Shown: positions 2,320-7,716, counted from the stretch's first letter. The stretch is DNA of 8,291 nucleotides from a virus (IMGVR_UViG_2667527595_000001), one strand, 5' to 3'. The notes: generated from the letters alone by a model not told the origin. A program made the numbers and translations.

Positions 2320-3066
<747 letters not shown>

Positions 3067-3095: not shown

Positions 3096-4313
<1,218 letters not shown>

Positions 4314-4366: not shown

Positions 4367-4399
4367 AGTGCGCATAATGTGACACGCGTTATGTTGAAA
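4367..4399 (+). other. dif-like XerC/XerD recombination site (putative attP arm 1) with an extended 11-bp central region
   Basis: AGTGCGCATAA (10/11 to the XerC arm of E. coli dif, GGTGCGCATAA) - tgtgacacgcg - TTATGTTGAAA (9/11 to the XerD arm, TTATGTTAAAT). The dif consensus is quoted from memory. Confidence 0.45.
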
Positions 4400-4436
4400 A
4401 GGCCGCTGCGATACTCTCCACCGCAGCGGCCTTTTT
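4397..4436. terminator. Rho-independent terminator hairpin after gIV, possibly bidirectional
   Basis: Perfect 10-bp GC-rich stem ggccgctgcg (4401-4410) / cgcagcggcc (4422-4431) with an 11-nt loop, followed by TTTTT (4432-4436) and preceded by AAAA (4397-4400). Confidence 0.75.
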
Positions 4437-4460
4437 ATACATAACGTCATTGTGCGCACT
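4434..4460 (-). other. Second dif-like site in inverted orientation (putative attP arm 2)
   Basis: Reverse complement of 4434-4460 reads AGTGCGCACAA-TGACG-TTATGTATAAA (XerC-like arm 9/11, XerD-like arm about 8/11). 4365-4379 is complementary to 4448-4462 at 14 of 15 positions (one T/G mismatch). Confidence 0.4.
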
Positions 4461-4465
4461 GAACC

Positions 4466-4621
4466 TTAAAGGATTTCAGTGTCCTTACTTAGTTTTTTGT
4501 GTATGGTCATCACCAACGGTGGGACAAGCGTTATCAGGCTGAATATTGTCATGCCTGTGATGCTGCCAACAACGAAATGCTTTATCAGCAGGTCAAGGAT
4601 TAAGTCACTGGTTATCTGCAT
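4466..4621 (-). CDS. Hypothetical small hydrophobic protein (51 aa), hand-translated and not in the supplied ORF track
   Basis: Minus-strand ATG (plus-strand CAT 4619-4621) preceded by AAGGAAAT with a short spacer; translation MQITSDLILDLLIKHFVVGSITGMTIFSLITLVPPLVMTIHKKLSKDTEIL, stop at 4466-4468. It lies 63 bp downstream of the minus-strand regulator gene on the same strand. Weak evidence. Confidence 0.2.
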   Translation of the reverse strand: MQITSDLILDLLIKHFVVGSITGMTIFSLITLVPPLVMTIHKKLSKDTEIL

Positions 4622-4684
4622 ATTTCCTTGTTTAACTTTTCCTTTGATCTTTCCTGGCCTGTTTGTTTGACGTTGGGAAAGGGA

Positions 4685-4885
4685 TCACATTGCCTTTTTT
4701 TTCTTAAGTTCTTCCTGACTTACCATATCTATTGCTGCGTCTTTTGCGTAGTGATCTATCATGTAAGACAGTACTTCGGTCCATTTTATGCTCCTTCCTA
4801 TCTTTTGACTTGCATCAATAGCTAATCTTTCTAGCTTTAGATACTTCTCGTTTGGCACGTTATAACTCTTTCTTTTTTCAGCCAT
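4685..4885 (-). CDS. Small basic protein (66 aa), putative transcriptional regulator/repressor (possibly ribbon-helix-helix-like), divergent from the replication module
   Basis: Minus-strand ATG (plus CAT 4883-4885) with AAGGGGG SD about 8 nt upstream (plus 4893-4899 reverse-complemented). Product MAEKRKSYNVPNEKYLKLERLAIDASQKIGRSIKWTEVLSYMIDHYAKD... has a basic N-terminus followed by helix-like segments. Function inferred from size, charge pattern and divergent position, analogous to RstR of CTX-phi. Confidence 0.5.
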   Translation of the reverse strand: MAEKRKSYNVPNEKYLKLERLAIDASQKIGRSIKWTEVLSYMIDHYAKDAAIDMVSQEELKKKKAM

Positions 4886-5018
4886 TATTTAGCCCCCTTT
4901 TTTGTATTTAGCCATCATGTACTCTAGAGCACTTGAGCAAATGTTGTTAATACATCTTGTGTTCATGATGTTTTTTGAGTATGTTCTTTTTTGTCTTTCA
5001 TCATGAGGACATGAGGTC
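4886..5018. promoter_or_regulatory. AT-rich divergent promoter/operator region between the minus-strand regulator and the + strand replication operon
   Basis: Direct repeats TATTTAGCC at 4886-4894 and 4905-4913 flank the regulator's RBS; imperfect 14-bp palindrome GTACTCTAGAGCAC at 4919-4932 (12/14); recurrent TCATGA/CATCATG motifs around 4915-4921, 4964-4971 and 4998-5005. Confidence 0.45.
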
Positions 5019-7260
<2,242 letters not shown>

Positions 7261-7290: not shown

Positions 7291-7716
7291 ATGAATCAAA
7301 TTTACGACAGTTTTCCGTTTCCTTCCCCTGAGGGTTTTACCGCAGGTATGACAATGGCGGGATATTTTATTCACGCCACTGTCATAAATGATGAGGAGTT
7401 AAAACCCACGGGTTCTCATTATAACCCTGAGGCCAAACCCAAATATGCCATTGTTATTGCCTATCCGTATGAGGACCGAAAATTAAAAGTCCGCCGTGAG
7501 GAGCATGAGCGCTTTTCCTGTACTGAGGAGGATTTTAAATTTTTTAATTCATGTCCTGATTTGCAGGGCAAATCTGTTTATCTCACGGTGGATGTTAACT
7601 CATGGTCGACAGGCTCAGAACGTCATGGTGTCTGGTATCGTTTTATTTCCGGCTCCATGAAACGTTTTGACGGTCAGCCGCTGGGTGCACTGCCCGCAGG
7701 TAAAGAAAAAGGCTGA
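7291..7716 (+). CDS. Putative ssDNA-binding protein (gV position), 141 aa
   Basis: Strong SD GAGGAG at 7277-7282, 8 nt before ATG 7291; lies between the replication gene and the coat-protein cluster as gV does in Ff phages. Function assigned by synteny only; the sequence is longer than Ff gV. Confidence 0.45.
   Translation: MNQIYDSFPFPSPEGFTAGMTMAGYFIHATVINDEELKPTGSHYNPEAKPKYAIVIAYPYEDRKLKVRREEHERFSCTEEDFKFFNSCPDLQGKSVYLTVDVNSWSTGSERHGVWYRFISGSMKRFDGQPLGALPAGKEKG

Follow-up and report, generated by a model that had tools for sequence, protein, structure and literature searches.

A putative RstR-like repressor–operator immunity cassette with a predicted ribbon-helix-helix fold in a dif-integrating filamentous prophage of Escherichia coli

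Introduction

Whether a short minus-strand gene and the gap beside it form a dedicated repressor–operator pair, and what such a pair would control, is the question raised by positions 4685–5018 of a viral stretch of 8291 nucleotides (IMGVR_UViG_2667527595_000001), referred to below, at its full length, as the window. The initial annotation had proposed a divergent small regulator acting on a repeat- and palindrome-bearing operator region, with the layout of RstR in CTXphi. On the comparisons presented here, the 66-aa gene and the 133-bp gap are most likely a repressor–operator immunity cassette of an E. coli filamentous prophage.

Genomic organization of the prophage

The window is almost one unit of a dif-integrating filamentous (inovirus) prophage of E. 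coli, and it encodes a Zot-like assembly ATPase (1116–2318), a secretin (3105–4313), small coat proteins, a replication endonuclease of the GPA/HUH type on the plus strand (5260–7260; PF05840, E 8e-49; phrog_91, E 2e-128), which is the presumed target operon, and possibly an ssDNA-binding protein (7291–7716). E. coli 100416 and further isolates from human stool carry near-identical prophage copies in tandem, which adjoin hipBA in the dif region, and a megablast of the whole window against the phage collection gave no match. The attP (4367–4461) lies outside the cassette and consists of a pair of inverted dif-like sites, GTGCGCATAATGT..GTTATGTTGAAAA and its counterpart, from which a CTXphi-type hairpin is possible; the stem between the inverted dif-like sites AGTGCGCATAATGTGACACGCGTTATGTTGAAAAGG and CCTTTTTATACATAACGTCATTGTGCGCACT is GC-rich and resembles the single-strand attP hairpin of the CTXphi type. 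About 90 nt of this segment recur at 78–97% identity in many related loci, and an attL junction adjoining hipA is visible in E. coli 100416 (L001). The E. coli dif sequence was not found in the window when up to three mismatches were allowed, the attP arms being more diverged, and these arms were recognised by eye and via the attL junction.

The rightward operon begins with orf82 (5019–5267, plus strand; 82 aa), which overlaps the start of the Rep gene at 5260. The orf82 product matches phrog_3104 weakly, a search for its homologues yielded one close match, and its AF2 model (pLDDT 57) was too poor for a fold search; homologues of orf82 stand ahead of both GPA-type and Rep_trans-type rep genes. 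A grouping of orf82 with entries named 'replication protein, partial' was discarded as a clustering artefact, since those proteins do not contain orf82.

Several other features of the window were observed. Between the Zot and secretin genes (2332–3066) lie 2.2 tandem copies of a 339-bp unit, with 96% matches, and the first ~60 nt of the unit are 94–100% identical to a segment found in hundreds of small (1.3–4.5 kb) E. coli plasmids. Inside the open reading frame at 51–284, Gly/Ser-rich repeats with a 39/78-nt period (49–243) resemble the flexible linkers of pIII-type adsorption proteins, and their copy number varies among relatives. Between attP and the 66-aa gene, two antisense open reading frames overlap, one for a putative hydrophobic 51-aa product (4466–4621, minus strand) and the other for a putative 63-aa product (4479–4670, plus strand); neither has a family match, and in a comparison with an 88%-identical relative about half of the changes affect a wobble position that the two frames share.

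The minus-strand gene and its conservation

The gene occupies 4685–4885 on the minus strand, with its stop codon at 4685–4687, its ATG at 4885 and the Shine-Dalgarno sequence GGGGG (4897..4893) placed 7 nt ahead of the ATG, the strand reading AAAGGGGGCTAAATA-ATG, in agreement with the reading frame and strong Shine-Dalgarno originally described; the equivalent position of a related cassette in E. coli RIVM_C037166 (L004) carries GAGAGG. It is a genuine gene under strong purifying selection, because the protein matches phrog_2503 (listed function unknown) at E 7.4e-27 over residues 1–64 of 66 and profile positions 1–64 of 65, i.e., over its full length, and because all 22 of the nucleotides that differ from L004 (22/201, 11%; third codon positions, 21/66) are synonymous, leaving the protein 100% identical. 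The exact protein is recorded on 335 contigs, always under the name 'hypothetical'. Pfam and NCBIfam have no family for it, searches with PADLOC, Rfam and NCBIfam gave no matches, and a terminator scan around the gene found none. To have called it the only convincing minus-strand gene was fair, as the remaining minus-strand open reading frames lie antisense to Rep or within the 339-bp repeat. A 43-aa minus-strand reading frame at 4889–5020 was rejected as a gene, having no family match and spanning the predicted promoters.

Predicted fold and protein family

The AF2 monomer model of the 66-aa protein, built from a 12-sequence alignment (pLDDT 83), displays an extended N-terminus, a helix at residues 12–29, a turn at G30 and a second helix at residues 35–65, so that the N-terminal beta-strand and the two helices joined by a short Gly-containing turn, as expected of ribbon-helix-helix (RHH) proteins, are all present in the model. 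The predicted fold matches RHH proteins, and the earlier suggestion that a basic N-terminus followed by helices is compatible with this fold agrees with the model. In the profile and structure searches that had been recommended, structure comparison returned antitoxins and a centromere-binding protein as best matches and, in Foldseek against viral models, RstR of CTXphi in second place; a significant sequence match to a curated RHH family was lacking. In Pfam the 66-aa protein met only DUF7753 (E 0.038), and the 64 family members met at best ParG (E 0.019) and RHH_3 (E 0.034), all below threshold; the PDB gave no match in a single-sequence search and, in a profile search, ParG as its best match, at a non-significant E 0.019.

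A profile search of 1.84 billion representatives recovered 101 clusters, nearly all of 55–90 aa. In the alignment of 64 members, strand residues 7 (T/S) and 10 (I/V) are conserved, and residues 8, 9, 11 and 12 are among the most variable, as expected if this part of the ribbon reads DNA. The alternation of conserved and variable strand residues lends indirect support to a dimeric antiparallel beta-ribbon that would read the major groove.

Motifs and constraint in the intergenic region

The gap described earlier as AT-rich and 133 bp long extends from 4886 to 5018, up to the ATG of orf82, and the interval 4501–5000 has 38% GC against 50–55% in the neighbouring genes. Its parts have evolved differently. 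The direct repeat TATTTAGCC occurs twice, at 4886–4894 and 4905–4913, and nowhere else in the window, so the two copies exist as reported. They are not conserved: both lie in a variable leader (4886–4914) with 15 differences from L004 in its 29 positions, and the 87%-identical copy in L004 lacks them. The repeats were dropped as operators; the leader is probably not an operator, and the repeats are probably incidental because this stretch diverged and lost them. The remainder of the gap (4915–5018) differs from L004 at 6 of 104 positions, below the third-codon divergence of the gene. The imperfect palindrome noted around CTCTAGAG, formed by TCATGTACTCTAG/CTAGAGCACTTGA at 4915–4936 (13/13-nt, 85% complementary), is present, contains the predicted leftward −10 and is fully conserved in L004.

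The several TCATGA/CATCATG motifs of the first description are likewise present and conserved. The pentamers TCATG/CATGA occur seven times in 4886–5021 against 0.83 ± 0.97 in dinucleotide-preserving shuffles, none of 5000 of which reached seven, a result that is not a clean P value because the motif was picked after inspection. Five sites are proposed around CATG cores. S1 (4911–4921, minus strand; TACATGATGGC, core 4916–4919) lies at the predicted leftward transcript start, and its place in L004 is taken by ACATGAGGTCA, which matches the right-hand site perfectly in inverted orientation. S2 (4960–4970, minus strand; TTCATGATG, core 4964–4967) overlaps the −35 and spacer of the predicted rightward promoter, and the relatives have their own palindromes at this place. 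S3–S5 (4999–5023, plus strand; CATCATGAGGA, CATGAGGT and CATGCAAA) present three CATG cores 8 bp apart in the leader, overlapping the ribosome-binding site and ATG of orf82, and their conservation could be translational because they overlap Shine-Dalgarno GAGG repeats. No changes occur in L003, L004 or L005 at the five cores (4916, 4964, 5002, 5010 and 5018) or in the CTCTAGAG palindrome. The CATG-core motifs and this palindrome are the constrained elements of the gap, and the palindrome, being equally conserved, could be the true operator or an extra or alternative one.

Predicted promoters

The leftward promoter predicted for the repressor gene (4921–4950, minus strand) combines the −35 TTAACA (4950..4945), an 18-nt spacer and the −10 TAGAGT (4926..4921), scoring 9/12 in a consensus scan; the same site is present in L004, and similar sites lie 24–35 nt ahead of the ATG in some relatives. 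The rightward promoter predicted for the orf82-rep operon (4957–4985, plus strand) combines the −35 TTGTGT (4957–4962), a 17-nt spacer and the −10 TATGTT (4980–4985), so that 6 bp separate the two predicted −35 elements, which stand back to back. Transcription is predicted to start near 4914 leftward and near 4992 rightward. With 3/6 matches, the rightward −35 is weak and was missed by a generic scan, its support being a recurring position only: the pattern of a −35, 16–18 nt and a −10, which is loose and was used without a chance control, recurs at a similar position in 14 of 14 related intergenic regions with a palindrome in or next to the promoter candidate, and in most of the 14 the candidate begins 64–80 nt away from the repressor ATG and has a T-run after it.

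Exchange of the cassette and co-variation of alleles and palindromes

The tandem prophage of E. coli 100416 (L001) is 98–99% identical to the window on both sides of a module (4625–5254) without counterpart, replaced there by non-homologous DNA that carries a 62-aa allele of 45% identity, a different intergenic region and no orf82; in the lineage of the window, orf82 belongs to the exchanged module. Two more alleles are found at this place in related E. coli phages, namely allele C (60 aa, L025) and alleles D2/E (70 aa, L028 and L029). The minimal cassette shared with L004 (4675–5049, 87% identity) comprises the gene and the gap together with the initial 30 nt of orf82, and it adjoins a Rep_trans-type rep gene in an otherwise unrelated inovirus. 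The gene order is kept, with the secretin, the RHH gene on the opposite strand, the intergenic region, an orf82-like gene in some cases, and Rep; in 20 further loci, where readable, the RHH gene is convergent with the secretin gene and divergent from the orf82-like gene and/or rep. The comparison shows the gene and its intergenic region exchanged as a unit.

Each allele's gap contains its own 6-bp palindrome two to three times, inside or beside the rightward promoter, 3' of its −10 and near the leftward promoter. Allele A (the window and L004) joins the strand residues KSYNVPN with TCATGA, and the relatives L007 and L008 join TYNVTEE with the same palindrome; allele B (L001) has KSIGISN with CAATTG, lying within GCACAATTGCAC; allele C has KAIAITE with GTTAAC; allele E (L029) has DTTVRIN with GCATGC, lying within CGCATGCG; and the If1-like phages have TTMAIVA with ATGCAT / ACATGC. 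When alleles A, B, C and E are compared, no gap contains the palindrome of another allele, and single stray counts occur in more distant relatives. Repressor and candidate operator region vary together among otherwise similar phages, with four alleles at one position, which is the pattern looked for in heteroimmunity. Neither module B nor module C was seen in recognisable K1 strains.

The CTXphi environmental element of V. cholerae and the Vibrio phage VAI1 share with E. coli allele E the strand DTTVRIN, GCATGC-type candidate operators, a promoter core, and CGCATGCGTATTTACAGCA and TATGCGCGCATGC; the putative repressor–operator pair is therefore conserved across genera, in E. coli and V. cholerae phages.

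Rearranged forms of the locus were also encountered. In some relatives, three small genes stand in a row on the minus strand (L028: 5302–5490, 5547–5759 and an unannotated one in ~5860–6040). The row comprises an allele-C RHH gene that is intact yet lacks annotation, D2 (70 aa) as the second RHH allele, and a gene for a 62-aa protein whose start, MPTKHIND, resembles that encoded by a published rstR-calc primer (MATKHIKD). In Xenorhabdus (L018, L020, L021, L022, L023 and L024), what directly follows the RHH gene with its promoter region is a dif-like site (GGTTCGCATAATCTATATTATGTTAAAT) and not rep; integration at these loci seems to detach the rightward promoter from the rep operon. In two E. 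coli strains (L027:527-1492 and L030:527-1492), an IS110-family transposase gene lies directly upstream of rep, at the place of the cassette; the phage copies concerned are integrated at murP and hcxB rather than at dif, suggesting another route of integration. In phage If1, the 'major intergenic region' contains a 63-aa homologue that is intact and lacks annotation (L002:1489-1680, plus strand; NC_001954.1 ~5120-5310, minus strand). Compared with an If1-like contig lacking it (compare L011 and L013), If1 has a 1829-bp insertion 2 nt upstream of the ATG of the homologue, which includes an IS200-type TnpA-like reading frame and whose 'ORF348' is probably TnpB; the insertion severs the homologue from its ribosome-binding site and from its predicted promoter and operators.

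Relationship to RstR and other known systems

The RstR-like divergent layout proposed for the locus stands, in position and orientation as well as in homology to one RstR allele class. In Foldseek against viral models, 'RstR [CTXphi]' C9E7D4 (86 aa) ranks second with a probability of 1.00, and against the family profile both the 86-aa 'environmental RstR' of CTXphi (ACV95583, GQ466611, strain IB1617) and the 'RstR-like' protein of VAI1 score 85 bits. These profile scores together with Foldseek turn the RstR analogy into homology for the environmental allele class, a named rstR allele, and for VAI1. Both of these genes are transcribed divergently from rstA, and the environmental allele is also found in RS1env and pre-CTX records. 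The window has a small gene divergent from the rep operon across a short gap near attP, and it shares with environmental RstR and VAI1 the protein family, the divergence from rep across an ig-2-like region, repeated palindromes flanking a promoter candidate and the background of a dif-integrating inovirus. It differs from them in protein sequence (only ~26–28% identity), in the strand and palindrome (KSYNVPN and TCATGA against DTTVRIN and GCATGC in the CTXphi environmental element) and in the partner genes, which are a GPA-type Rep and orf82 in the window and RstA/RstB in CTXphi. In the literature, no biochemical study of the environmental RstR allele and no experiment on the 66-aa protein or a verified family member was found.

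The RstR proteins of El Tor and classical CTXphi are of ~112 aa with a helix-turn-helix, and CTXphi also uses LexA. LexA co-regulation of the rep promoter, as in CTXphi, has no counterpart in the window, where 4600–5300 contains no CTG-N10-CAG and its best site matches 12 of 20 positions of the 20-nt consensus. Layout and proposed role agree, El Tor and classical RstR being divergent repressors that act on the rep promoter, with heteroimmunity determined by the diversity of their alleles (PMC11509585; Kimsey and Waldor 1998, as cited there). For eight rstR alleles, repression is confined to the ig-2 promoter of the same allele (PMC11509585). The rstR-6 allele has 192 bp and primers encoding MKKKYTSLRV... 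and ...NGLKR (PMC11509585 supplement); the encoded N-terminus resembles the L017 member and the C-terminus resembles environmental RstR, and on these primer-encoded termini its membership in the family of the window protein is only probable. YpfPhi confers partial superinfection protection and its gene at the position of the cassette has been called RstR-like (PMC4266046); that gene, YPO2273 (YpfPhi / CUS-1), occupies the same position in a dif-integrated enterobacterial inovirus (PMC4266046).

Outside filamentous phages, CopG (RepA) of pMV158 differs in that copG is co-transcribed with repB and not divergent from it, has no phage immunity role and shows no detectable sequence similarity to the window protein. 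Arc and Mnt of P22 and MetJ are RHH repressors whose dimers or tetramers bind short repeats that overlap promoters; the boxes bound by MetJ are 8 bp long and in tandem, a spacing equal to that of the window CATG cores at 4999–5023. No sequence relationship of Arc, Mnt or MetJ to the window protein was detected, and phage type and circuit differ.

Proposed mechanism

It is quite probable that the protein is an RHH repressor of the environmental-RstR family that would shut off orf82-rep, autoregulate and set superinfection immunity. At short palindromic sites with a (T/A)CATGA core, the N-terminal beta-ribbon of RHH dimers would enter the major groove. Occupancy of S2 (4960–4970) would cover the −35 and spacer of the rightward promoter, occupancy of S3–S5 (4999–5023) the orf82 leader and its ribosome-binding site, and occupancy of S1 (4911–4921) the leftward transcript start of the repressor itself, giving autoregulation. 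With orf82-rep off, rolling-circle replication and virion production would be off as well, repression would keep the dif-integrated prophage quiet, and the repressor would block an incoming phage of the same allele, i.e., superinfection immunity; phages with another allele and palindrome would escape, so that several could co-inhabit one cell. The exact promoters, the bound motifs, the sign of regulation and the immunity are what we infer from this arrangement. The further suggestion of a full lysogeny switch is unsupported: the analysis identified neither a second regulator nor an antirepressor, the region lacks a LexA box, and there is no known inducer.

Alternative readings of the locus

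The protein could instead be a TraY-like replication or nicking accessory, an RHH protein that binds near the plus-strand origin and aids or modulates the HUH Rep. RHH accessory proteins of HUH relaxases are well known, the gene adjoins rep in a region where inovirus origins often lie, and two family members other than the window protein bear the automatic UniRef name 'Relaxosome protein TraY'. The rep types across the syntenic loci (GPA-type, Rep_trans-type and If1-type) speak against it: the 100% identical protein serves the GPA-type Rep and the unrelated Rep_trans Rep, with the If1-type as a third, which argues against a protein-specific partnership, and the fixed association with one relaxase or Rep family and a nick site that a TraY-type protein should have was not found. 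The palindromes, moreover, flank a promoter candidate, the homology leads to an annotated RstR, and the single RHH unit of the window protein contrasts with the two in tandem of F TraY, so that a TraY role is unlikely.

Some RHH proteins activate transcription, and the poor rightward −35, as is usual for activator-dependent promoters, together with the failure to find a derepression mechanism, would suit a positive or dual regulator that activates the rightward operon or acts only on its own promoter, without immunity. This reading is improbable, since one site over the −35 and spacer and three downstream of the −10 are positions typical of a repressor, allele-specific cassette exchange is a signature of immunity determinants, and the rstR alleles tested by others repress (PMC11509585).

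The best structural matches of the 66-aa protein are antitoxins and a centromere-binding protein, which, with the faint ParG sequence matches and an Omega-like RHH protein noted in another inovirus (PMC10534721), would fit a role as antitoxin or partition protein of the RHH class (ParD, MazE, ParG or Omega type) stabilising the episome, with transcription control as a by-product. These structural matches reflect the common RHH DNA-binding domain, and the operon has neither a toxin nor a ParA gene: the attP-proximal segment downstream holds no convincing reading frame (that at 4466–4621 has no family match and an ambiguous coding signal), the upstream neighbour is divergent and not a co-transcribed toxin, and PADLOC and Pfam find nothing for the neighbours, which leaves very little room for this reading. 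It is equally unlikely that the motifs are chance or translational signals in a region of two promoters without a dedicated operator, as the unconserved TATTTAGCC repeats and the GAGG ribosome-binding motifs within the CATGAGG repeats might suggest, given the excess of seven motifs over 0.83 expected, the 104-nt core more conserved than the synonymous sites of the gene, and the unrelated repeated palindromes that other alleles carry at the same places.

Biological significance

For the repressor–operator cassette as the preferred reading, the cassette type is already known, and the window protein would be an uncharacterised RstR-like immunity repressor with a predicted RHH fold. An RHH fold, in place of a helix-turn-helix, in one RstR class may be a new, if modest, point, because no paper pairing 'RstR' with 'ribbon-helix-helix' was found in the literature. 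A joint reading is tentative and perhaps somewhat less likely to hold than to fail: RHH-type RstR cassettes might represent one exchangeable immunity system of filamentous phages in Escherichia, Xenorhabdus, Dickeya, Pectobacterium, Yersinia and Vibrio (including the CTXphi/RS1 environmental elements), in which a simple code between two or three beta-strand residues and a 6-bp palindrome would decide which dif-phages accumulate in one pathogen genome, and IS-caused loss of the repressor promoter could explain the constitutive replication of If1. The allele–palindrome pairs provide direct and cheap hypotheses for EMSA and reporter tests, and they would allow prophages to be typed by immunity group, as with rstR in cholera epidemiology. 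If the protein is an immunity repressor, it would decide which filamentous phages co-reside or superinfect in human-stool E. coli and in relatives that include the RS1/CTX environmental elements of V. cholerae.
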